A DNA stretch of 64,000 nt from Myxococcota bacterium (GTDB lineage: Bacteria; Myxococcota_A; SURF-8): assembly GCA_965140415.1 (NCBI GenBank), contig OZ223209.1, forward strand, positions 5,440,001 to 5,504,000, read 5' to 3'. The position numbers and the translations under genes were made by a program. Every line of letters begins with the position of its first letter. The first letter of the stretch is position 1. Positions 2,720 through 20,319 of the stretch are shown here, in pieces. The notes under the pieces were generated by a model. The model was not told where the DNA came from, did no database searches, and saw only the letters and a program-made list of their open reading frames with translations.

Positions 2720-5700
2720 ATGGGGGATACCGTGTCCGATCTGCAGAAAACTAAAGCACAGCTTATTGAGGAGCTTGAGGTTGCTCGACAGCAAATCAAG
2801 CAGTTCAGGATCGAAGCCCGCCAACGTGAAGCGGAAATCTCAAAGACCGGAAAAATCGGTCTGTGGGATTGGGATCTGAAGACGAACAAGGTCGATTTCT
2901 CTGATGAATGGAAACGCCAGATTGGCTATGAGCCGAGCGAAATTGGAAATGATTTCAGAGAATTTGAGAGCCGAGTCCATCCTGATGACATCGAGCCAAT
3001 CATGGGACATGTCCGAGATTGTATCGATGAAATGCGTCAAGACTTTCAAGTCGAGTTCAGATTCCGACACAAGGACGGATCCTATCGATGGATTCTGGAT
3101 CAAGCATCTACCATTTCGAATGAAAGCGGTGCGGCAGTTGGCTTGCGTGGTTCACATATCGACATCACAGAAAGAAAACGCATTGAGTCCGAACTATTCA
3201 CCCAAAACGAATTATCGAAAAATATCGCCAATACCAGCCCGATTGGGATCACCGTCGTCGACATAGATGGCCAAATCAATTACGCCAATCCAACAGCGGA
3301 ATCTATTCTGAAGCTCGAAACTTCCGAACTACTTGATAGAACGTACAACGACCCACACTGGAAAATCTTCAATTTGGATGGAGGTCCCTTCCCAGACGAT
3401 CAACTGCCTTTTGTCCGCGTAATGAAAACCGGGGAACCGGTATTCGATGTCCAGCACGGGATTGAAACACCCGATGGGCAACGCATTCTTCTTTCAATCA
3501 ATGCCGCGCCGCTAAAGGACCCCACCGGCAAAATCTCCGGTATGGTTGCCGTGATGTCGGATATTACCGAGCGAATAAGGATGGAGGAAAGCCTTCGTTC
3601 AAGCGAAGAAAAATACCGTCTATTTACGGAGTCAACCAACGATTGGGTTTGGCAGGTAGACGCTCGCGGAGCCTATACGTATGTAAGCCCCAGTATTGAA
3701 TCTCTTATAGGTTATAGCCCTCAAGAAGTCATTGGGAAGACCCCCTTCGATTTCATGGCTTCCGAGGAAGCCCGGCGGGTGGGAGCCATTTTTCAGCAGA
3801 TCGCATCGAAGCAAGAGCGAATCACCGATCTGGAAGACACATTGATCTCGAAAGACGGTCAAGAGGTAGTTTTCGAAACCAATGCCGTACCGGTGTTCGA
3901 TGAAGCAGGTACCTACTCAGGATACTTTGGTACTTGCAGCAATATTACAGAGCGGAAGCGTGTTGAAGAAGCGCGAAAACAAAGCGAGCTGCGTTTCAAG
4001 CTAGCCTTCGATCAATCTTTCCAATTCAACATGCTTATCGACCCGAATGGTATGGTCGCTGATGCCAACGAGCTGTGTTTTGAAGTCACACAAACGCCTC
4101 GATCTCAGGTAATCGGCAAAGAATTTGCTCTGGCTCCCTGGTGGGATTTCGATTCAGGGGCCGAGGAGACTTCCAGGGAATCAGTTGAGCGTGCCTTAAA
4201 GGGAGAAACCGTAAGCGACGAAGTCGGCTTTTTCGATTTTAACAATAATTTGAGACATGGTAGGCGAATATATAAGCCGATTTTCGATGAGAACGGCAAG
4301 GTTATCTATGTCAACGTAAACGGGCAAGACACAACAGACCAAAGAAAAGCAGAGCAAAGTCTTGCGGAACGAGAACGTAGCTTCCATGGCTTATTTAATA
4401 CGATTGCAAGCTGTGTGGCCGTATACGAACCGATTGAAAATGGCCGGGACTTTGTCTTTGTCGACATCAATCCGGCGGGTGAAAAGCACAGCAAGGTTGT
4501 CCGGGATGAGATTATCGGCAAAAGGGTCACGGAGGTTTTTCCTGGAATCAAGGATATCAGCTTATTCGAGATATTCCAGGAGGTTTATCGCACCGGTAAA
4601 ACCCGGCATCTGCCGCTAAGAACTTACAAAGACAATCGCATCCGTGAGTGGGTCGAGAATACGGTATATCGACTTCCCAACGGACAGATCGTGGCTGTGT
4701 ATGAGGACACAAGCGAGCAGAGACTAGCCGAGGAAGCACTTCAAGAAAGCGAAAAACGGCTGATAGCTTCTCAATACATCGCCAGAATGGGTGATGTCAT
4801 GTGGGAGGTGGAAACCGGAAAGGTTTCCTGGTCTCCTGGAATGCAAACTCTGATGGGATATAGCGAAGGTGAAATACTCGACTATGCGAAAGTGAATGCC
4901 GAGGTTCATCATCCTGACGACCTGGAGCGTATTCAGGTCTGGCTTGAAGAAAATGTTGCTTCCGGCAAAAACAGGCTCACACCCAATGAATATCGGATTG
5001 TTCGGAAAGATGGTGTGGTTATCCACGTACATGTAGAAGGGACGATTGCACGTGAAGAGGGTCAGCCAACCCGGATACTGGCAACGGTACAAGATATTTC
5101 CGAACGGATTAAGGCTGAAAAGCTCATTCAGGAATATCAAAGAGAACTCGAACTTACCGTTGACGCGACAACTGACGGTATATGGAAGTGGAATTTCATC
5201 ACCAACGAACTCTCCTTCAGTCCCAAATATTACACGATGCTCGGTTACGAACCGGATGAGTTTCCTTCCGATTTTGAAAACTGGAAAGCGCTGATCCACC
5301 CAGACGATCTGGATCGCGCCCTTTCAGCGGCTTCCGAATACCTGGAAACAAAACCCGATACCTACGAAAACGAATTCCGCCTGCGGACAAAGAGCGGCGA
5401 GTATCGTTGGATACGGGCCAGCGCTCGCGTTGTTGAACGCACTCCGGAAGGCGAGGCCGTGCGCATGATAGGCAACCATCAGGATATCACCGACCATATA
5501 AAGTCCGAGGAACGCAACCGGTCTCTGGCAGAAATGGTTGACTTCGCTCCGAATTCCATCACGATACATGATTCCGAAGGAAACTTTGTTTACGCCAACC
5601 GAAGGACGTTTGAGCTTCACGGCTACACACCAGAAGCGTTTTTCAATCTCAAATTGCAACAATTGGACGTGCCGGAAAGTGCGGAAAAGATTGAAGCCCG

Positions 5701-8700
5701 TATTCGTGAGGCTCAGGAAATAGGAGAAGCCACCTTCGAAGTGGGCCACTACCGGAGAGACGGCAGCATTGTTCCATTGGAAGTTTCAATCAAGCCGATT
5801 GAATGGCAAGGGAAACAGGGGGTTCTCAGCATCGCCCGCGATATCACCGAGCGCAAACAGGCTGAAGATGAACTCCGAAAGAGCGAAGCACGCCATCGAG
5901 ATCTGGCCAGAAAGTACGAATTGTTGCTTCAACAGTCTCGCTCCGTCATTCAGACTACGATGGACGGCTTCTGGTTGATGGATGCGGAGGGAGGTTGCCT
6001 TGAAGTCAATCAGGCCTTCGCTGATATGCTGGGCTATTCAAAAATAGAATTGCTGAGTATGAATGTTTCCGACATCGATATCGATGAAGATCCCGAAGAT
6101 ATGGCGCGACATGCCGAAGAGATCAAGAAAGCCGGGTCGTCCCGGTTCGAAGCGCGTCACAGGCGGAAAGATGGTCGTATCATTGATGTTGAAATCTCCA
6201 CTACGTATCTTCCAGACCAGCAGAAGTTCACGGTTTTTGCCAGAGATATTACCGAAAGAAAACGTAAAGACCTTGAACTGAAAGAGACCAACGAGCGCCT
6301 TCAGGCTTTTCTCGACAATGCTGCAGACGCCATCTACATCAGTGATAAAAAGGGAACTATCATCCAGGTCAATGCTCAAGCCAGTCGAGACAGCGGCTAC
6401 AGCCGGGATGAATTGCTCTCCATGAACATTACGGATATCGATGCCGAGACGGTGTCGAAAGACGCGCTTGATGCCATCTTCCGAGAGTTGTTTGAAACCC
6501 GTAGAATGAGCCACGACTCAAATCATAAGCGTAAAGATGGCACGACATACCCGGTGGAGATCACCATCTCCGTGCTTGACACACATGAAGGCGAGCGAGT
6601 AATCGGCATTGCGCGAGATATGACGGAGCGTCGCCGGTTCGAACAGAAACTGAAAGTAGCGTATCAAAGAATTTCATTAGCGAAAGAATCGGCAAAACTC
6701 GGTATTTGGGATCTTGATTTGATTGAAAACCACCTCGAATGGGACGAGCGTATGTTCGAGTTGTACGGTCTCCTTCCTAGTGGTTTTGGCGGTGCCTACG
6801 AAGCATGGCTACAAGGAGTTCATCCTGATGATGTGGAGCGGGCAAGTCGAGAGGTGGAAGACGCCATTCGAACGGGTGAAAATTTCGAATCTGAATTCCG
6901 GGTAGTCTGGCCTGATGAGACGGTAAAATATATAAAAGCCTATGCAGCGGTTGTCAAAGAGGAGAAAGGTCAGTCCGTTCGCATGATCGGTGTCAACTTC
7001 GACATCACGGATCAGAAACTCAGTCAAAAAGCGATAGTGGAAAGTGAAAAGAAATATCGTTTGCTGGCCGACAACATCTCCGATGTCATATGGATTCGTG
7101 ATTTGGACCTGAATCTCACCTACATCAGCCCTTCCATCAAGAAGCAAAGCGGGTTTTCCGTAGAAGAAAAACTGAACCAGCCATTGCAGGAAAGCATGAC
7201 GCCGGAATCCGTCGCGCTTTCATTGGACAGACTTCAGCAATACTTAGAATCAGAACGGGCGGGGGAGCTTGATCCATCAACCGCCATAACCATCGAACTT
7301 GACATCTATCGTTCCGATGGCACCACCTATCCGGTAGAGTCAACGGTTTCTTTCCTGCGCGATGATCAAGGGGAGGCAATCGGTATCATTGGGGTAAATC
7401 GCGAGATCACGGATCGTAAAGAGGCGGAAAATGCCCTACAAGAGAGCGAAGAGCGTTTTCGATCCCTCCACAATGCTTCATTCGGTGGTATTGCCATTCA
7501 CGACAAGGGGAGGATTCTTGAATGTAATCAGGGTATGTCGGAGATGACCGGATACTCCCTGGATGAATTGATCGGCATGGATGGCCTGTTGCTTATTGCC
7601 GAATCGAAGCGGGAATTGGTGATGGAAAAGATCATGACCGGGTATGAAAAACCATATGAAGCTATTGGTTTAAGGAAGAATGGCGAAGAGTATCCTTTAA
7701 GACTTGAAGCCAGAAATATTCCATACAGAGGAAAACAGGTCAGGACTGTCGAATTCAGGGATATCACCGATAGCAGGCAGGCTGAAGAGGCGCTTAGAGC
7801 CAGCGAGGAAAGATTGGCATACGCCCTCACAGCCACTGCTGATGGGCTGTGGGACTGGAATATCGTGACAGGGGAAGTATACTTCAGTCCGCGCTATTTC
7901 ACGATGTTGGGTTACGAACCCGGAGAATTGCCGTCTACGTTCGATACATGGCAAAGCCTGTTGAACCCGGATGATGCAGATAATGCTCAATCGGTCGTCC
8001 AGCAGCATATTGAGAGCCAGAGAGAGTCGTTTGGTGTTGAGTTTCGCCTGAAGACGAAGAACGGGGAATGGAAATGGATTCTTGGTCGCGGAAAAGTCGT
8101 CGAACGAGATAAGGAAGATAAACCCATTCGAATGGTTGGCACGCATACCGACATCTCTGAATTGAAACTCGCCGAGCAATCACTCAAATCCAACCTCGAA
8201 GAGCAAAGCGCCATCCTGGAAAGCAGCATGGTGGGCATCATGGTGCTGCACAACCGGATCATTACGAAAGTCAATTCACGTATGGCGGAGATGCTGGGAT
8301 ATTCGGTGGAGGAAATGGAGGGCAAAGGACCGGAACAACTCCATCTTTCCAAAAAGCACTTCGAAGAATTCGGGGAGAAGTACTATTGGCGACTCGGTGA
8401 AACCAACATCGTCCAGGTGGAATATCCCTTGCGTCATAAGGATGGCCACACCGTATGGTGTCAGTTCAATGGTCGCGCCATTGCCCCGCCGGACCTTAGT
8501 CTTGGGGCTGTCTGGATTATTGATGATATTACGGAACGGAAAGCGGCGGAGGAAGAGAAATCAAGGCTACAGGAGCAACTTCAGCAATCCCAGAAAATGG
8601 AATCGGTCGGACGTCTTGCCGGTGGTGTGGCCCACGATTTCAACAACCTGCTCACCGGCATCACCGGCAACGTATCACTGGCCATGATGGATCTTTCACC

Positions 8701-9715
8701 AGGTGACCCACTGCTGGAATCACTAGGGGAAATTGGTCAAGCTGCGGACAGCGCGGCAAGCCTGACGCGCCAACTTCTGGCCTTCAGCCGCAAACAGATC
8801 ATCAAGCCGAAGGTGCTGGATCTTAATCAGTTGATCGATAACATGCAAAAGATGCTACGGCGCTTGATCGGTGAAGATCTGGAACTTTCGACCATTCCGA
8901 CAAGGGATTTGGGACGCATCAAAGCCGATCCCGGTCAACTTGAACAGATCCTGGTGAATCTGGCCGTCAATGCGCGAGATGCCATGCCGAATGGTGGCAA
9001 GCTCACCATCGAAACCGCCAATGTCACATACAAGGACGTAAAGTGCGAATTATGCTCCGAGATTCGCAAAGGCGAATACGTATTGCTGACCATCTCCGAT
9101 AATGGAGTAGGGATGGATGAAGACATCCGAAAGAAGATGTTCGATCCTTTCTTTACGACAAAGAAAGAAGGAGAAGGCACAGGTTTAGGATTGGCGATGG
9201 TATATGGTATCGTCCTGCAACATGAGGGTCATATCGAAGTCCAATCTAAACCGGGTGAAGGCACCACATTCCACATTTCTTTCCCGACTGTCATGGAAGA
9301 AGCTGAAACGCTTACCCGAAAAACAACGATGGATGATCTTCCAAGTGGGAGCGAAACTGTCCTTCTGGTGGAAGACGAGCGTATGGTGCGCAACATCGCC
9401 ACCAAGATTCTTGTAAGGCAAGGCTATAAAGTCCATAGTTCGGATTCCGGTCCGATGGCTTTAAGCAAGGTCAAGAAGGAGAATCTGGAAATTGACCTGC
9501 TCGTAACCGACATCGTCATGCCCGGCATGAACGGGCGTGAATTGGCCGAAGAACTCCAGTCGATCATACCGAACCTGAAGGTTCTTTACACATCCGGATA
9601 TACAGAGGACGTTATCGCCCATCATGGTGTGTTGGACGAAGGTCTAAGCTTCATCGGCAAACCTTATACGCCACAAGATCTGGCCAAGATGGTGCGGAAG
9701 GTGCTGGATGGGTGA
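2720..9715 (+). CDS. Cytoplasmic hybrid sensor histidine kinase/response regulator with 15 PAS/PAC domains
   Basis: 15 DIT(E/D)R-type PAC ends; H-box [12 protein letters not shown]-box [11 protein letters not shown]1 DNGVGM; G2 GTGLGL; receiver LLVEDE...[13 protein letters not shown]...KP; no TM helix seen. Confidence 0.95.
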
Positions 9716-12298: not shown

Positions 12299-14620
12299 TT
12301 AGCCTCGCCATTTTGCACCCGTCACGTAGCGCTGCGTTTCGGGAATCGCATACAGGTCAAGCACCGCCTGCTCAATTTCCGATTCGATCATTTGTATTGC
12401 AGATTCATCACGAGGTATATAATCGTCATGTGCCGCCAGATAGGCACGTCGCTTACTAAGTTGATGCAACCGCTCTAAAGCTGTAAAAGGAAATTCTCCT
12501 TTAAACAGAGCTTTCGGAAGAGGCACACGGCGCAGCAGATGGCCATTGACTTCCAACCCCACCCCTCGGCGCTTGGCGTAGGTATCGAACCAGGTTGCCA
12601 ATAGGTCTGAATTCAAGATGGCACATAGCGCATAAAGGGAAAGTCCGTCCATCTTGGACAATACGACATTCAAGGAAAACGGTACGTAACACGGCGTTTC
12701 CATAACGGCAAAAGCCGGACGCCTTCCCAACTGGCGAGCGATGATTTTCGGCGTTTGCCAGAGCCGCTCATCGCGTGGCCAGTGTAAATGATACCAACAA
12801 TTGCGACCTCTAATCGTTTCCCGTCGAGCATCCATGATGGGACGAAAAGGTTCGAGATGCTTGATAATAACAGGAGCAAGCGTCGGGTCCGGTAGCGTGC
12901 GTTTCGTCGAATAGACGATATATTGAGCGCCAGACTCTTCCAGGCAGTAGCGGTGCAGATCCCTGGCGCGTGGGTATGAATGAATTAACTTGGCTTCGAA
13001 TTCGGAGACGTGCAGGGTCTTCCGTTCCCTTTCGGACAGTACAAAAACGCCTGCCTGAAGTGGATAGCGATTCTGAAAGCGTCGATTGATGGAAGGCGTA
13101 ACCCTGGCGGGATTCTCGGCGATTCCCTGTCGAATCGTGCAACATTGCTCCAGAAAACACCCCGTATCCAAAGCAGCTAAAACAGGTTGATCGGAAATAC
13201 GAAAAGAATGCGTCTGGCCGAATATCTCATCAAAAGAAACGTCCCGGTCGACAAAACGCCGTTTACCGGATAAAAGCGCTTCAGCTGTTACAGAAGAACA
13301 ATCGGGAGGTTGTCGCAATAACGTGCGGTCCTCTTGTTCACCTTGCTGCAACGTAAGGATCAAATGCTGTCCGGCGACCGAGGCAAACACCGGTAAGTCC
13401 TGCAACAAAGTCAACTCCGTTACATGGGCACAATGCTTGATATGTTCGATCAACGGCGAGGCGTATTTTGAGTTTAGCCAGTAGCTCGGCAGAATAAATG
13501 ACACGCGCGCCTGCGCTGTCATACATTGCAGCGAACGATGCAGAAAGTAATGCCATAAATCCATACGAGGCGCATGGAAGCGGCGCCCCAACTCACTCTC
13601 GGCCAGTCGATCCAGTTGGGTTTTGTGCTGCCGTTCACGAAGGTAGGGCGGGTTACCAACGATGATCTCGAAACGTTCGCTCCATGCATTGCCATTGGAA
13701 AAGGACGATTCATCCGCAAGAAAATCACCACAAAGTAAATGAGAAAAGAGAGAGCCATCAGCAAAAAGCGCCTTACAATCGTTCTCCCGCATGGATGCAT
13801 GGGAAAAACAATGAGCCAGGGTTTCCCACAACAAAGTCAAGCGTGCAAAGCGAATGGCACAGGCATCGATATCCACTCCGAATAGTTGCCTGCGCAGAAT
13901 CGAAAGACACTGTTGGAGATCAACGGTCCCGCCTTGGGTTTGCCCTATGAGGCGGCGATATGTTGCCAGTAAAAACGCTCCGGCTCCACAGGCCGGATCC
14001 AATATACGAGTGGAAGCGGCAAGGGCTTCGCCCGTTGGCATCACGCGCTCCAACATGTAGTTCACCACAAAAGCTGGTGTATAGAATACGCCTTGCTGCT
14101 TGCGCTTGTAATTGCGCAGGTTAGCGAGTAAGCCGGAACTCGTCCGTTTGAGGGGATGAGAGAGGATCCACTCGTAAGCCTGTCCGATCACCTCCGCATC
14201 CGGTGCAGATGCAGCTTGCAAAGATTCGGAAAGAGTATGCAACCAATGGTCCAGCACGGACTTTGTGAAAACCAAACGGCGATACGATAAAGCCGTGTTC
14301 AGATCCGTGTATAATCCCCTGCTGCCGCATTGCTGCTGTAGGATAGCTACGAAATCAACCGCTTTGATACGATTACCCGGTAACGAGTTAAGATCGTTTC
14401 TGGCGCTGTCGATGAGATTCGAAGCAGATGCAGTATAGAGAGTGAAGAGTTGAAAGGTCCACAGTTCCGATAACAACGCAGAAAGGCTTTGATCCACTGT
14501 CGCCAGATCCGCTGTGGAGTCCCGGAGATTTCCAAGGGTATCTTTTGCCAGGCATAGCCGCAATTCGCGGGCTTCCTGCAAAAAACGCTTAGTGGGGGTC
14601 GCTTTGGCTGACACCTTCAT
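12299..14620 (-). CDS. N6-adenine DNA methyltransferase (Eco57I/TaqI-like, gamma class) with C-terminal target-recognition region
   Basis: GVFYTP, motif I ILDPACGAGAFL, FGVDID, motif IV IVGNPPY, TaqI_C-like WYHLHWPR...PKII.RQ...ILNS. Confidence 0.9.
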   Translation of the reverse strand: MKVSAKATPTKRFLQEARELRLCLAKDTLGNLRDSTADLATVDQSLSALLSELWTFQLFTLYTASASNLIDSARNDLNSLPGNRIKAVDFVAILQQQCGSRGLYTDLNTALSYRRLVFTKSVLDHWLHTLSESLQAASAPDAEVIGQAYEWILSHPLKRTSSGLLANLRNYKRKQQGVFYTPAFVVNYMLERVMPTGEALAASTRILDPACGAGAFLLATYRRLIGQTQGGTVDLQQCLSILRRQLFGVDIDACAIRFARLTLLWETLAHCFSHASMRENDCKALFADGSLFSHLLCGDFLADESSFSNGNAWSERFEIIVGNPPYLRERQHKTQLDRLAESELGRRFHAPRMDLWHYFLHRSLQCMTAQARVSFILPSYWLNSKYASPLIEHIKHCAHVTELTLLQDLPVFASVAGQHLILTLQQGEQEDRTLLRQPPDCSSVTAEALLSGKRRFVDRDVSFDEIFGQTHSFRISDQPVLAALDTGCFLEQCCTIRQGIAENPARVTPSINRRFQNRYPLQAGVFVLSERERKTLHVSEFEAKLIHSYPRARDLHRYCLEESGAQYIVYSTKRTLPDPTLAPVIIKHLEPFRPIMDARRETIRGRNCWYHLHWPRDERLWQTPKIIARQLGRRPAFAVMETPCYVPFSLNVVLSKMDGLSLYALCAILNSDLLATWFDTYAKRRGVGLEVNGHLLRRVPLPKALFKGEFPFTALERLHQLSKRRAYLAAHDDYIPRDESAIQMIESEIEQAVLDLYAIPETQRYVTGAKWRG

Positions 14621-14635
14621 TCGTTACGAGCCGGC

Positions 14636-16720
14636 CTACCAGCAATTCCATTCGTCGGAATTGTCGCCGCAATCATCCCAGCCGTCGCATTCCCAATAGT
14701 ACGGAATGCATTCGCCGTTGTCACATTCGAAATCCCAGTAATCGCAGCCGCAGTCACGCTCATCGGAGTTGTCGTCGCAATCGTCCCAGCCATCGCAAAC
14801 CCAGGAACTCGTAATGCAGTTGCCATTGTCACAGGTGAATTCATAGGATTCACAACTGGACCAGCCGCAGTCTACCGGATCTTCGTCCGAGCCATCCGAG
14901 CAATTGTCGGTGTGGTTGCAAGCCTGCGCCTGTGGGATGCATTCGCCGTTGTCGCAGGTAAACTCATTTGCTAAACAGGGGCAGCCTTGCTCGTCGGAAC
15001 CATCGCTGCAATCGGTGGAGCGGTCGCACTGCCAACCAGCCGGGATGCATTCTCCATTGTCGCAGACAAACTCATCCGCGGCACAACCGCAGTTCTGCTC
15101 GTCGGAAGCATCCGGGCAATTCACCGCACCATTACAGTAGGAGGTCGTTGCGATACAGGTTCCATCGCTGCATTGCCACTGGTTGGCCGCGCAGTTGCAG
15201 TTCTGTTCGTCTTCACCCTGTAGACAATCTTCTCTGCCGTCGCACACATATTGCAGTGGAATGCACAGGCCATCCAAACAGGCGAATTCTTCAGAGCTAC
15301 AGGTATTGGAACAATCGACTTCATCCTGGCCACGCGGACAATCGTTTACGCCGTTACAAACCCAGCCATCCGGGATGCACAGTCCCGCACCGCAATCGAA
15401 CTCGTTACGCGCACAGTCACTGGTACAACCGTTCTCGTCCGCTGCATTTGCACAATCGTTGAATCCATCGCAGACCCAGTCCAAGGGAATGCAGGTGTAA
15501 TCCGGGCAAGTGAATTCCTCTGCGGTGCAATCCACCGGACAATTCGCCTCGTCCTCACCCTGCGGACAATCGCTTACGCCATCGCACTTTTTATCCAGTT
15601 CGATACAACTCCCATCGTTGCAGGTATACTGCTGATCGGTACAGGGGCAATCCTGTTCATCTTCACCGGAAGGACAGTTATCCGTGCCGTCGCAAACCTT
15701 GGTCAATGGAATGCAGGAATCGTCGTTGCAAGTGAATTCGTCCTCACCACAACCACAATCCGCCTCATCTTCACCGAAAGGACAATCCCGGTTTCCATCG
15801 CATTGCAGACTCTGCGCGATGCAGGAGCCATCACTACACGTGTATTGATCGTCCGCACAGCCACAGTCCGCTTCATCGGAGCCGTCAGCGCAATCCTGGT
15901 TGCCATCGCAGAGCAATGTCAACGCAATGCAGGCACCATCATTACATTCAAATTGCGTATCGGTGCATTCACAATCGATCTCGTCCGCGCCATTGTCACA
16001 GTCCCGCACACCGTTGCAAACCAGGCGCAGGTGGATGCACTGCTCGTCGGAACAGCGGAATTCGACATCGCTGCATACGATCGGACAATCCAGTTCATCT
16101 TCGCCGTGAGCACAATCCTCGGTTTCGTCACAAACCTTTTCCGCTGCAATACAGACCGCATCACGGCAGCGATACTCCGTCGCCGAACAGGGAGCCGGGC
16201 AACCTATTTCGTCTTCTCCGGTGGCGCAGTTTTCCAACCCGTTACACCGTTGCCAGTAGCGGATGCAAGCGCCATCATTGCAGGCAAAGTCATCACCGCG
16301 ACATTCGCTGCCCCAATCTTCATCGCCTTCCGGTTCCGCTTCCGCTTCCACATCCGGGTCCGCTTCGATTTCCGCAAGGTCAATGTCCATCTCGCCTGCA
16401 TCGGAATCCATCTCCGTCGAATCGCCATCTACCGGCAGGTCGGGTTCACTGTCGTGGTCCCCATCCGGTTGAATCTGATCGCCGTCTGCGCTCACGTCGG
16501 TTTCCGCTTCCGTCTCGGATTCACCCTCACCCGATTGCGATTCCACATCAAGATCGAGGTCACCATCCTCTCCATCACCGAGTTGATTGGGATTGACGGG
16601 ATTGTAGCTCCATTCTTCCGCATCCTGATCGCCATCCGCTCCACTATCGCTGCCTGCACAGGAAATCCCGGCAAACGCCAGAACCAGTGCGACCAGTAAC
16701 AACCATCGAAAACCTGTCAT
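14636..16720 (-). CDS. Lipoprotein with acidic DGD linker and 15 tandem LDL-receptor class A repeats
   Basis: Start MTGFRWLLLVALVLAFAGISC (lipobox-like Cys); 15 six-Cys units with consensus CxxxxFxCxDGxCIxxxWxCDGxxDCxDGxDExxC. Confidence 0.9.
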   Translation of the reverse strand: MTGFRWLLLVALVLAFAGISCAGSDSGADGDQDAEEWSYNPVNPNQLGDGEDGDLDLDVESQSGEGESETEAETDVSADGDQIQPDGDHDSEPDLPVDGDSTEMDSDAGEMDIDLAEIEADPDVEAEAEPEGDEDWGSECRGDDFACNDGACIRYWQRCNGLENCATGEDEIGCPAPCSATEYRCRDAVCIAAEKVCDETEDCAHGEDELDCPIVCSDVEFRCSDEQCIHLRLVCNGVRDCDNGADEIDCECTDTQFECNDGACIALTLLCDGNQDCADGSDEADCGCADDQYTCSDGSCIAQSLQCDGNRDCPFGEDEADCGCGEDEFTCNDDSCIPLTKVCDGTDNCPSGEDEQDCPCTDQQYTCNDGSCIELDKKCDGVSDCPQGEDEANCPVDCTAEEFTCPDYTCIPLDWVCDGFNDCANAADENGCTSDCARNEFDCGAGLCIPDGWVCNGVNDCPRGQDEVDCSNTCSSEEFACLDGLCIPLQYVCDGREDCLQGEDEQNCNCAANQWQCSDGTCIATTSYCNGAVNCPDASDEQNCGCAADEFVCDNGECIPAGWQCDRSTDCSDGSDEQGCPCLANEFTCDNGECIPQAQACNHTDNCSDGSDEDPVDCGWSSCESYEFTCDNGNCITSSWVCDGWDDCDDNSDERDCGCDYWDFECDNGECIPYYWECDGWDDCGDNSDEWNCW

Positions 16721-17062
16721 GTTCTTATTTCTTTCACGTCCCGGCATACACAGATATCCGTTTCGCTGCATTGCATCGCAGCCTGGATCGATTCGGTTAA
16801 AACAAATCGAAAGTAATGATCACGTCCTAGAGGCACTATACTCATTTCTGCCCATCAAGTAATCGTGATGTGCCATGGTCTCACGGAATGTAAATTCCGG
16901 GAGGCCGTGTGTATCTTATTGAAAGCACACAGCCTTCCACGATCTTCGATCGCGTAAGACTATGCCACAACTTCTTGGAATCGGTGGCTAAAAATGACTA
17001 ATACCTCCAATAAAGCAGTGGTCATTGTATCCGAAATACACGACAATTGCCAGTGACACCGC

Positions 17063-20000
17063 TTATTTGCAAAAGCGGCGACGACACACAGCCAGCAGAG
17101 CGACAAATCCCCACCACATCGTTCCAGTTGAAGCAGGAATTTGATTGCAACCGCCTCCATCGTCTGCGTCGTCCAAATCGCCCACAGACAGATCCTCATC
17201 CGAATTCGATTGCGGCGCTTCTTCTATTTCCAAATCGACGTCACCGGCGACGGTGCCATCTTCGTCTCCATCTGGAAACTCGTATTCCGCTTCCTGTTCG
17301 TCCTCGTCGCCAGGCCCTTCTTTTTCTGTTTCGAATTCCCGTTCTTGTACATCCAAATCCAAATCACCATCGGGTACGAACTCGATATCCTCTTCCGTCG
17401 CATCCCGTTCCAGATCGCCGTCCCCTTCCGGTTGTGCTTCATCGAGCGTTCTGAAGCGACATGGTTCATCATTAAACACGGAGAGGTTTTCCGCGATATC
17501 GTAAGCCATAATCAGGCAACTGTAATCGGTGTCCGGGGTCAACCCCTGAAAGCGTACTTCCTGTTCTGTCGCCGCCACCGGAACGACAAACGACAATTGC
17601 TCGCGATCGCCTGTATTTTCATCCGTCACCAGCACAAGGCCGTTTGTAGCTTCATCGGTACGCCATGAAAGCAGAGCAGATTCAGCCTCGATTTCGGAAA
17701 GCTCGACGTCAGTAAAAACGGGCGATTCGCAATCCATCATCGCCGTTGCATTAACAAACACGGTTTGTCCGTCGCAATCGGCGTCATCGTAGCCCGCGAA
17801 GAACGTCTCGCCATGCGCCACGGGCAAGGGATCGTTTCCGTTAAAATCCAACCAGGCGCTGAATTGCCCTGTGTCTTCACCACTTTCCGTCAAAACGAAG
17901 GAAACAGCCCCAGAAGCGCGGCGTGCCAATTCCACCTCAGTATCTATTTCATCTTCGTTTTCGCTGTCCGAATCAACATCTGCGTCGCCATCCAAATCAC
18001 TATCTGTATCACTATCTGTATCGCCATCCGCAGGAGTTTCCTCCGTCCACAGCCACACCTGGACGCTGTCTACGCTTTGCGAATCCACATTCAGATCCCA
18101 ATCCGACAACGTAATTTTCAGACCGTTTTCGCAAGAAGCCACCGTTCGATCCAGCCACAATTCGCCGCAACTCACCGGCAGTGCTGGAATTCGCGCCGAA
18201 AACGGCAGGGCATCCGCCGCCGTAATCAGCAAATCCGCCGTTTGATCGCCTGCAACCGGAAGCGTGAAATTTACTTGCCCGGCATTGTCTCCCTGCGCGA
18301 CGACGACCGCCTCACCGATCGTCAATACAGCCGTTACTTCCTTAGCCGCTTCACCGTTACGCAAAACGCTTAAAGAGAACTCAGACCCCGTTTGCAATGG
18401 CAGCGCTTCGGGTAGTTCCACTTCAAGCGGCAAAGGATCGCTCAAACGAATCAGGCCGGTTGGATCGCCGAACAAAACGTATTGAGAAAGCACATCCTCC
18501 ACGTTTTTACCATCGCCATAAGCAGCCAATAGTCGCAGCATCCCGCCCAATAGCGCTCCACCCAATCGTTGAGAAAAATTGAATAAACTGCTCGTAACGC
18601 CCTCGCCCAACTCGGCGGATTCATCCCAGGCGGTTGGCGTGCTGCTGGCGTAAATCGCCACCGAACCATGTGGACCGTGGCGCATCCACGCTTCCGCAAA
18701 ACTCGGCTCCAATTGCCTGAACGCGCCGTTGGTGCAGGAAACATCCATTACAAAAGGAACGCGCGGGGCATTTTGCAATAACAAAACATCCGCGTAGTTA
18801 TAGGGCGGCTGGGTGGTCGTCCATTCCACACCATTTCCGTGACCCATGTAAATCGCGAACCCACGCCCCTGGTTGAATGCATTCTGAATCAACTCCGCCG
18901 TGTCATTTCCCACGCTGTGATACAGTTTGTTGACGCTTTCGAAACCGTGATCCAATAACAGCGCCGAGATGCGATCCAGGCGCTCGTCGTCGTTTTCACC
19001 CAATCCCAGCGACTGCGAAGAACTGATTGCCAAACCTTTTTTAAAGCTGGCTCCCTGCCTCCCTGTCGGCGGCGTCTGGGCATATGCCAGTAATTTTTCT
19101 AGTTGCGCCGTCAATTGTTCCAGGTTCTGCGCACTCAACCGCCCGGTTAGTAATTCAGGAAAAAGATCGTCACCATCAAGTAATCCATAACGAAAATCTT
19201 GATCGCTGTTATCCACGCCCACAACGGTCGGAACCTGTGCTGCATCGCCCACAAGTAACAACATATCTGGAGTAGGTTGTAGGGTTTGATAGGCAGTGAG
19301 TAAGCTTTGCTTGATTTCCTCGCTGGTTCCACCAGCTTCCGAAACCGGAATCACGCTAACCACCCATCCGCTGGCTCGTTTCCAGGCGACGTACTCCTCA
19401 AGCGCCGGAATGAATTCGTCGTAAGCGACGATCAACAGATGCCCTAAAGCCTCGCCGTTAACACGTTCGTGCGGCAAAACGCGATCTGACGCCAAAATCG
19501 TGGTCATTGCTCGCGCAAAGATCGCGGAATCATTGGGTAATCGCTTGCCGTACGGACGGTGCAATGTTAATGTCACCTGCGCAGTACCATATACCGTCAA
19601 CGCACTACCCGCCGCAACGTATACAGTTGGATTCAGTTGCACGCGCAGCAGATCGACATCACGGAAACGATACGGGCCGCTAAGCTGTATCGGCTGCTCC
19701 GGAAAAGCATTTGTGCTGTGATAACGGTCGCTTTCGAGTTGAAACGCCGGTTGCGCCCCGTTCACGCAGCGACAACGAGACGGCTGAGCCGGCCATACTT
19801 TTATCTGACTGTAATGATGCGGATCGGAGAAATTTACGGAGGCAGTGACCGTTGCACCTCGCGGGACGGCAACCAAGCGCCCGACGGTCGGCAAAGCCGG
19901 AAGTCCGACTTCCCGAAGATGGCCTTCACCGGGGAAATCAAGCTGCTGAAAACGTGTATTCTGCGCCTGCCGCTGAGTTTCGTAGAAACCGGGAATATGG

Positions 20001-20200
20001 AAAGTCAGTTTAAGCGAATCGGAAGTTGGCTGCTCGATCTGTACCGTTGGTCCAGCGGGAGATAAGTCACCGGATTTATTGAAAGTTCGCCATTCTGCCG
20101 CCTGCGCGATGGTGCAAACAAACAAGATCCCCAACACGCCGAGAATACGTCCCAGGTGGCAGCAATGGAACCCGAACCTGCTTTTCGTTAACCGCACCAT
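17063..20200 (-). CDS. Gingipain-like C25 cysteine peptidase with propeptide, FN3-like domain and MYXO-CTERM-like sorting tail
   Basis: Signal peptide ending AQA; propeptide VGLPALP; LLLVGD; catalytic YMGHG and DVSC; YVLFGDP; WRTDEAT...GLTPDTDY; tail DDGGGC...WWGFVALLAVCRRR; RBS GGAGG before ATG 20200. Confidence 0.88.
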   Translation of the reverse strand: MVRLTKSRFGFHCCHLGRILGVLGILFVCTIAQAAEWRTFNKSGDLSPAGPTVQIEQPTSDSLKLTFHIPGFYETQRQAQNTRFQQLDFPGEGHLREVGLPALPTVGRLVAVPRGATVTASVNFSDPHHYSQIKVWPAQPSRCRCVNGAQPAFQLESDRYHSTNAFPEQPIQLSGPYRFRDVDLLRVQLNPTVYVAAGSALTVYGTAQVTLTLHRPYGKRLPNDSAIFARAMTTILASDRVLPHERVNGEALGHLLIVAYDEFIPALEEYVAWKRASGWVVSVIPVSEAGGTSEEIKQSLLTAYQTLQPTPDMLLLVGDAAQVPTVVGVDNSDQDFRYGLLDGDDLFPELLTGRLSAQNLEQLTAQLEKLLAYAQTPPTGRQGASFKKGLAISSSQSLGLGENDDERLDRISALLLDHGFESVNKLYHSVGNDTAELIQNAFNQGRGFAIYMGHGNGVEWTTTQPPYNYADVLLLQNAPRVPFVMDVSCTNGAFRQLEPSFAEAWMRHGPHGSVAIYASSTPTAWDESAELGEGVTSSLFNFSQRLGGALLGGMLRLLAAYGDGKNVEDVLSQYVLFGDPTGLIRLSDPLPLEVELPEALPLQTGSEFSLSVLRNGEAAKEVTAVLTIGEAVVVAQGDNAGQVNFTLPVAGDQTADLLITAADALPFSARIPALPVSCGELWLDRTVASCENGLKITLSDWDLNVDSQSVDSVQVWLWTEETPADGDTDSDTDSDLDGDADVDSDSENEDEIDTEVELARRASGAVSFVLTESGEDTGQFSAWLDFNGNDPLPVAHGETFFAGYDDADCDGQTVFVNATAMMDCESPVFTDVELSEIEAESALLSWRTDEATNGLVLVTDENTGDREQLSFVVPVAATEQEVRFQGLTPDTDYSCLIMAYDIAENLSVFNDEPCRFRTLDEAQPEGDGDLERDATEEDIEFVPDGDLDLDVQEREFETEKEGPGDEDEQEAEYEFPDGDEDGTVAGDVDLEIEEAPQSNSDEDLSVGDLDDADDGGGCNQIPASTGTMWWGFVALLAVCRRRFCK

Positions 20201-20319
20201 CGATTTCCCTCCATATTCATTCACTTTACAGGGAAATCAGCCATGCTGTCAAAGCGAATTCGCTTCGTTAATATAAGTACAAATGTACAGGCGATTTAAG
20301 TGGAATCGTTTCTATCGAA

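Follow-up and report, generated by a model that had tools for sequence, protein, structure and literature searches.

What an array of LDL-receptor class A (LDLa; LDL, low-density lipoprotein) modules may do on a bacterial cell, and whether it belongs there at all, is the question raised by a minus-strand gene on contig OZ223209.1 (assembly GCA_965140415.1). The gene lies within the stretch of 64,000 nucleotides analyzed here (positions 5,440,001-5,504,000, in the following termed the window) and encodes a predicted lipoprotein, which beyond its signal peptide and tether is made up of 15 LDLa modules. The protein belongs to the LDLa domain family, and its gene is genuinely part of the chromosome of an uncultured member of the Myxococcota. 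The protein exemplifies an architecture that is fairly widespread in this phylum yet undescribed, and a function in Ca2+-dependent multivalent binding is proposed for it.

Module identity and architecture of the protein

Assignment to the LDLa family is based on sequence profile, cysteine spacing, acidic cage and predicted fold, all of which are in agreement. Pfam profile PF00057 (Ldl_recept_a) matches 15 stretches of the protein (451.8 bits as compared to a cut-off of 24.1; E 9.5e-139) and is the sole Pfam family present, in line with the original prediction, made from the DNA sequence alone, of 15 consecutive repeats without a catalytic domain. In a six-frame search of the genome, every one of the 15 modules individually exceeded the PF00057 cut-off; an NCBIfam scan of the protein assigned no family. 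The protein contains 91 cysteines, i.e., Cys21 at the predicted lipidation site and 90 residues distributed over 15 six-Cys repeats, with the spacing C-x6-C-x4-C-x6-C-x5-C-x8-C in 14 of the 15 and a last interval of x10 in repeat 13. Disulfides of LDLa modules follow the pattern C1-C3, C2-C5 and C4-C6. The residues of the predicted Ca2+ cage (D/N...D/N...DE) are retained throughout, as had been noted before: the position after Cys4 is occupied by D in 10 and by N in 5 modules, that before Cys5 by D in 11 and by N in 4, and the D-E pair (SDE motif) as well as the Ile after Cys3 are present in all 15. Aromatic residues adjoining the cage are confined to modules 8-15 and peak in module 15. Two residues before Cys4, W is found in repeats 8, 9, 12, 14 and 15 and Y in repeat 10, as opposed to none in repeats 1-7, which agrees with the distal concentration originally described.

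Modelling with AlphaFold2 (32-row alignment) yielded a mean predicted local distance difference test score (pLDDT) of 73 and a predicted template modelling score of 0.27, the latter being expected since the modules are arranged like beads on a string. Blocks of 10 residues reached pLDDT values of 72-92 over modules 3-15, and the LDLa-like succession of β-hairpin and short helix (E-E-H...H) was obtained for 14 of the 15 modules, with module 1 being partly resolved. Foldseek comparison with the PDB led to chains of the LDLR family: 51 matches were retrieved at E<=0.001, all of those listed bearing LDLa, with rat megalin (LRP2) at the top (1.2e-31) and human megalin/LRP2, LDLR and VLDLR also among the leaders. 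Modules LA3-4 of LDLR (2fcw_B) were superposed with a root mean square deviation of 2.7 over 71 columns.

The open frame extends over 14636..16771 on the minus strand, and reading from the ATG at 16720 yields 694 residues; the alternative in-frame ATGs at 16747 and 16771 would lengthen the n-region only. The N-terminus (MTGFR-WLLLVALVLAFAGIS-C) combines a short n-region of basic character with a hydrophobic core that runs up to ...LAFAGIS-C, the Gly at position -3 being atypical with respect to the general lipobox consensus rule. Cys21 is invariant in an alignment (A1) of 10 bacterial LDLa proteins, and the genome encodes LspA (PF01252; 1 match, E 6.9e-42) and Lgt (PF01790; best match E 2.3e-63), pointing to a bacterial lipoprotein with a predicted Lgt/LspA-type signal. 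Ala at position +2 of the predicted mature protein is presumed here to indicate outer-membrane sorting, following the general sorting rules for lipoproteins.

The tether between Cys21 and the first repeat Cys, estimated before at about 115 residues, comprises 118, among them 26 D and 20 E (39 % D/E) and no K or R; the low pLDDT of the model in this region (Table 1) fits a disordered structure. The modules are connected by linkers of 1-4 residues, with a single residue at 8 of the 14 junctions, and a single Trp separates the last LDLa Cys from the stop codon. The mature protein has an isoelectric point of ~4 and a net charge of -165, with 18 K+R in total, and module 15 displays 8 aromatic residues (4 of them Trp) as well as a net charge of -12.

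For disulfide formation, the genome (designated G000 among the sampled genomes) encodes a VKOR-DsbA-like fusion, further DsbA-like domains and DsbD. VKOR and a DsbA-like Thioredoxin_4 domain are located within one frame of 404 amino acids (G000:C1:4501176-4502303), and a frame of 658 amino acids (G000:C1:2245874-2247607) contains three tandem Thioredoxin_4 domains. This unusual disulfide-forming set fits the Cys-rich exported proteome of the organism.

Table 1 Features of the LDLa gene and its surroundings, with positions referring to the window
Feature	Position	Strand	Basis
Coding sequence of the LDLa-array lipoprotein (694 amino acids plus stop)	14636..16720	minus	Listing of open reading frames, Pfam
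Signal peptide and lipobox (MTGFRWLLLVALVLAFAGIS-C), with Cys21 as predicted lipidated first mature residue	16658..16720	minus	Read from sequence
Acidic, predicted disordered tether (residues 22-139)	16304..16657	minus	Composition; AlphaFold pLDDT <50 for residues 20-139
15 LDLa modules (residues 140-694)	14639..16303	minus	Pfam, Cys spacing, AlphaFold, Foldseek
Distal tip, modules 12-15 (residues 546-694)	14639..15085	minus	Richest in aromatic and acidic residues
Dispersed repeat of ~165 bp, in the intergenic region that separates the LDLa gene from the C25 peptidase gene upstream of it	16839..17006	not assigned	Genome matches, read depth
C25 (gingipain-type) peptidase (1053 amino acids)	17063-20224	minus	
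N6-adenine DNA methyltransferase (773 amino acids)	12299-14620	minus	
Hybrid sensor kinase (2331 amino acids)	2720-9715	plus	

Relatives in Myxococcota and in animals

The original prediction had taken near-identical DNA of repeats 12, 13 and 15, which share the motif CDNGECIP, as a sign of recent expansion. Over the whole repeats, however, their DNA identity is only 54-66 %, and even the 24-nt stretches encoding the motif differ at synonymous sites. Pairwise identities among all repeats amount to 31-65 % on the protein and 42-71 % (mean 54 %) on the DNA level, the maximum of 71 % being reached by repeats 14 and 15. Judged by these sequence comparisons, the array is old and diverged rather than recently expanded.

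The implied rarity of such a protein did not hold up either. Among 401 genomes sampled from the phylum, PF00057 was found in 66 including G000 (63 above cut-off), representing 51 of 254 genera, and the 14 control genomes gave no match. When the array itself served as query, matches at E<=1e-10 were obtained in 30 of the 401 genomes. The all-LDLa lipoprotein design recurs in genomes G209 (L022), G269 (L023) and G389 (L024) as well as, interrupted by the end of the contig, in G230 (L014). Named genomes were scanned with two patterns from a 3-sequence alignment (A2, used since the 10 sequences of A1 are too diverse for locus patterns), a procedure biased to Nannocystaceae-like repeats, which yielded 22 loci from 98 candidate stretches. 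These are assigned to six metagenome-assembled genomes (MAGs) of Nannocystaceae, Enhygromyxa salina DSM 15201, seven Polyangiaceae, two 'Myxococcales', two 'Deltaproteobacteria', two Neomarinimicrobiota, one unclassified genome and one Acidimicrobiaceae contig of 2 kb. Seven loci (L040-L046) encode a Cys-ended signal, a linker and 9-14 LDLa (pattern count), with the array ending 0-2 residues before the stop; the Cys-pattern expression missed several loci known from the Pfam search, so that these architectures represent examples rather than counts.

The 2-kb contig of the Acidimicrobiaceae MAG (L048) carries a fragment of a Nannocystaceae-type LDLa lipoprotein nearly collinear with L040-L045 and is probably mis-binned. 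Two Neomarinimicrobiota genomes contain PF00057 matches, in case of G402 on several contigs, and the genome of Enhygromyxa salina DSM 15201 contains 12 such matches. Scanning genome contigs with the single protein retrieved no close orthologues and scanning metagenome contigs one distant match (29 % identity), and the exact protein sequence, with either of two starts, was not found in the protein collection. In a protein-language Atlas, the nearest cluster (score 0.87; 91 members, all bacterial) bears the automatic name 'Low-density lipoprotein receptor domain class A family protein', which is regarded as a lead only.

The all-LDLa lipoproteins of Nannocystaceae and other Myxococcota (L022, L023=L040, L041-L046 and L024, with L023 and L040 lying on one contig of G269) resemble the present protein with respect to the Cys-ended signal, the acidic or Ser-rich linker and the 9-14 LDLa modules. 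The Nannocystaceae homologues share 42-44 % identity over the array and also its polarity, i.e., aromatic-poor proximal and Tyr/Trp-rich distal modules, with W415, W453 and Y491 being invariant in A2. In contrast, the commonest spacing in a set of 10 Myxococcota homologues is 6-4-6-5-10 (46 of 109 repeats), linkers mainly comprise 4-6 residues, and Tyr is found where the OZ223209.1 protein has Trp.

In animals, the spacing 6-4-6-5-8 is the commonest too (258 of 573 sampled repeats). Likeness to the ligand-binding clusters of LRP2/megalin, LRP1, LDLR and VLDLR extends to the PF00057 module, Cys spacing, cage residues and predicted fold and, by analogy, to multivalent use of a tandem LDLa array; the sequence alignment of modules 12-15 with human LRP2 runs through four successive modules. 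Nevertheless, the protein stands outside the LDL-receptor protein family, since the EGF/YWTD region (represented by PF00058, PF14670 and PF07645 in the animal hits), the C-terminal transmembrane helix and the NPxY tail are all missing. It has, instead, a predicted N-terminal lipid anchor on an acidic tether, and the bacterial cell lacks endocytic machinery. One-residue linkers account for 57 % of the junctions, as compared to 5 % in 53 animal hits (median linker length in the animal sample, 4 residues) and 16 % in the 10 Myxococcota homologues.

On the level of single repeats, the mean best score was 127 against 573 animal and 121 against 109 Myxococcota repeats, with per-repeat means of ~102-141 when the animal repeats were subsampled to 109. 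A FastTree phylogeny of 342 repeats (~35 columns), which took in 170 distinct animal repeats by subsampling, does not unite the 15 repeats of the gene in one clade and places them next to animal as well as bacterial neighbours. Bacterial and animal labels change 36 times on this tree versus 114 +/- 5 times after shuffling, a difference inflated by close kin in both sets. In view of the similar scores and the mixed neighbours, no claim is made for a recent import or for a direction of transfer.

The gene sits on a single closed 5.98-Mb Myxococcota chromosome contig, in a window that also harbours tRNA genes, katG (Pfam/NCBIfam) and large open reading frames interpreted by position as tuf, fusA and rpoB/rpoC, the product check covering rpoB; this places the LDLa gene near ribosomal and rpoBC operons. 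RpoB shares 82 % identity with proteins of 'Myxococcales bacterium' and ~70 % with those of Myxococcus and Archangium, from which the host is identified as an uncultured member of the Myxococcota. With a GC content of 0.55 and a third-position GC content of 0.58 (35th percentile of 2039 long open reading frames), the gene is typical of this genome. In sequencing run X1, which possibly represents the source sample of the genome and then provides no independent support, one contig of 6104 nt covers positions 13800-16921 (end of the methyltransferase gene plus the complete LDLa gene) without a single difference, at a depth of 43.7 similar to that of the contig with the C25 peptidase gene (38.2); in run X3, 14 of 30 bins were covered at low depth. 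Short-read contigs break only at 16848-16974, where depth jumps from ~44 to ~5000, i.e., at the dispersed repeat, which has 41 other matches across the genome (84-92 % identity).

Eukaryotic contamination, a chimeric assembly or acquisition of an animal LRP fragment in the very recent past might be suspected from the top database matches by E-value, namely animal LRP2 and relatives (31-43 % identity), and from an alignment of modules 13-14 with human LRP2 that covers both modules together with the 4-residue linker. Such an explanation is so improbable as to be practically negligible in view of the chromosomal placement, the spanning contig, the inconspicuous codon composition and the bacterial lipobox and tether, and the original prediction had argued in the same direction. 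Moreover, identity to animal repeats does not exceed that to bacterial ones, and the repeats of the gene do not group in a single clade but have mixed neighbours.

Candidate functions of the array

The function proposed for the protein is that of a multivalent binder or adhesin that is tethered to the outer membrane, depends on Ca2+ and recognizes cationic ligands by means of an aromatic and acidic distal tip; the probability of this reading is put at roughly one half. Following Sec export, the protein would be lipidated on Cys21 by Lgt/LspA, folded oxidatively by the VKOR/DsbA-type system under formation of 45 disulfides, loaded with as many as 15 Ca2+ and attached to the outer membrane. Tether and tightly linked modules would then form a long, strongly negative, bead-like stalk, on which the distal modules 8-15, chiefly 12-15, with their Trp/Tyr residues beside the cage could serve as Ca2+-dependent multivalent binding tip. 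Polycations presented by prey, matrix or nutrients, such as proteins rich in Lys/Arg, are candidate ligands. The action may resemble that of an LDLR/LRP ligand-binding cluster, yet in the form of a surface adhesin or scavenger without endocytosis; an LRP-like multivalent capture protein or adhesin, as suggested by the original prediction, is plausible.

The binder or adhesin is favoured because of the distal aromatics beside the cage, the polarity kept in the homologues and the position of LDLa at the far end of stalks in other proteins. The latter is exemplified by a Myxococcota lipoprotein (L079), in which PKD, Big_9 and cadherin-like stalk domains are followed by 7 terminal LDLa stretches; other Myxococcota proteins combine LDLa with Kazal and CarboxypepD_reg domains. 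Bacterial Ca2+-dependent repeat-stalk adhesins (cadherin-like, Big, PKD) are likewise exported and repetitive, but the present protein possesses LDLa alone and no stalk domains. In LRP1 modules, according to a study on this receptor, contact of a ligand lysine with the acids of the Ca2+ site beside a Trp represents the general binding mode (PMC3304490).

Several observations weigh against this proposal. The study on LRP1 attributes the strong binding that this receptor displays for paired positive charges to loops of the DxDxD/DxDDD class, few of which occur in LRP1 cluster III, where few ligands are bound (PMC3304490). Unlike LRP1 clusters II/IV, the present array contains no module of this class: the central residue between Cys4 and Cys5 is acidic in 0 of 15 modules, as compared to 12/101 in the Myxococcota set, 1/40 in metagenomic bacterial-looking proteins and 183/509 in animals, and aromatic residues at this position occur in the bacterial sets about three times as often as in animals. 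This weakens the notion of a simple 'LRP-like lysine trap', although the lysine contact with cage acids and Trp is the general mode described for LRP1. Some of the Ca2+ sites may be weak, as judged from Asn at the cage positions (5 modules after Cys4, 4 before Cys5). PF00057 was not detected in any of five same-family genomes, so that the gene is dispensable at that scale, and on the same grounds orthology to the Myxococcota all-LDLa lipoproteins is to be taken as putative. Finally, no gene neighbourhood is shared with these: L022 and L023 adjoin unrelated genes (DUF1552, HlyD, PD40-amidohydrolase and Na:Ala symporter), and in genome G024, the genes following the C25 peptidase orthologue (41 % identity) are likewise unrelated, with no LDLa gene as neighbour. 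The C25 peptidase and the methyltransferase are not conserved partners of the LDLa gene.

Absence of the acidic central residue, with all modules belonging to the DxxxD class, would also be compatible with a structural polyanion or calcium store, i.e., a Ca2+-rigidified, disulfide-locked spacer or coat holding calcium and negative charge without any specific ligand. Such a role is possible, though not likely. It would make use of the extreme charge and of the up to 15 possible Ca2+ sites, the prevalence of one-residue linkers suggests a stiff rod, and acidic tethers in 117 of 379 lipobox-like open reading frames of the genome (crude pattern) suggest that the envelope generally contains polyanionic proteins on tethers. 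Exposed distal Trp/Tyr near the cage, retained in register in distant homologues, are however hard to explain for a spacer, and in other Myxococcota proteins LDLa is placed distal to dedicated stalk domains. As a further alternative, the tethered polyanionic array might intercept antimicrobial peptides of cationic nature or polycationic antibiotics on their way to the membrane. Aminoglycosides and polymyxin are known ligands of megalin, and the analogy, drawn from fold and sequence likeness only, together with the same acidic and aromatic features would suit such a protective sink. It is nevertheless improbable, since no resistance or efflux genes are linked to the array and nothing in its context points to such a role, and it constitutes a special case of cation binding rather than an independent explanation.

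On the orientation of the protein, the lipobox is silent. A periplasm-facing lipoprotein might bind or chaperone an envelope protein, e.g., a secreted protease or another Cys-rich lipoprotein; the C25 peptidase gene located ~290 bp upstream on the same strand and the many Cys-rich lipoproteins of the genome would provide conceivable partners. The chances of this explanation are small, given that the adjacency is not conserved, that the dispersed repeat lies between the two genes and that 118 residues of tether plus 15 modules appear too long for the periplasm, as estimated from the general dimensions of LDLa modules. The Ca2+-dependent multivalent binder or adhesin remains the preferred reading.

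Neighbouring genes and significance of the array

The C25 (gingipain-like) peptidase features a propeptide, weak PorU-like similarity and acidic DGD-type linkers. DGD-type acidic tethers, claimed by the original prediction for neighbouring proteins, are thus present in this peptidase and also in the second LDLa lipoprotein of the genome. The C-terminal tail of the peptidase (GGGC, a hydrophobic stretch and RRR), which is similar in the orthologue of G024, resembles a MYXO-CTERM sorting signal; NCBIfam reported no such match. On the other side, the gene for an Eco57I/MmeI/PglX-like N6-adenine DNA methyltransferase with a TaqI_C specificity domain begins 15 nt past the LDLa stop codon, and from this short gap the two genes may be co-transcribed. 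NCBIfam matches of the methyltransferase to BREX were all far below cut-off, with no search having been made for partner genes. In genome G042, C25 and NMO-like genes are ~3 kb apart with neither a methyltransferase nor an LDLa gene between them, giving a weak hint at insertion. Also encoded in the window, at some distance, is a hybrid sensor kinase in which 10 or more PAS-type domains are combined with HisKA, HATPase_c and receiver domains.

The second LDLa lipoprotein of the genome (1052 amino acids; G000:C1:3013958-3017116, L073 959-4117) has a long xDGD-repeat tether, EGF-like Cys motifs, three LDLa in its middle part and several copies of a Cys-rich module of ~115 residues without Pfam match. 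Another lipoprotein (L071, G000:C1:5872969-5880018) comprises 2349 amino acids with 13 % Cys and 13 stretches of the Dicty_CTDC (Dictyostelium-type) family, and four further Cys-rich lipoproteins (L068, L069, L070 and L072) yielded zero Pfam matches. In this respect, the LDLa array is an ordinary case, as modular Cys-rich lipoproteins abound in this genome, and bacterial LDLa as such are already listed automatically by domain databases.

LDLa is a textbook module of animals, known from cholesterol uptake, megalin and virus entry receptors, and here makes up an entire bacterial lipoprotein. The domain occurs in about one in six of the sampled Myxococcota genomes, while a search of titles and abstract starts found no published study of bacterial LDLa proteins. 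As a small, intron-free gene for 15 modules, the array is a tractable object for studying ligand recognition by LDLa outside animals as well as the assembly of 45 disulfides and 15 Ca2+ sites in a bacterial envelope, and with Enhygromyxa salina DSM 15201 a cultivable relative bearing the domain is available. The array also bears on the provenance of the LDLa module. One may speculate, as a tentative and rather unlikely proposal, that LDLa arrays did not stray in from eukaryotes but have long belonged to the surface modules native to Myxococcota, with the tethered all-LDLa lipoproteins as counterpart of animal scavenger receptors, employed for Ca2+-switched multivalent capture in predation or nutrient scavenging. 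If so, metazoan and myxobacterial ligand-binding modules would share a common origin, with transfer in either direction, from bacterium to eukaryote or the reverse.

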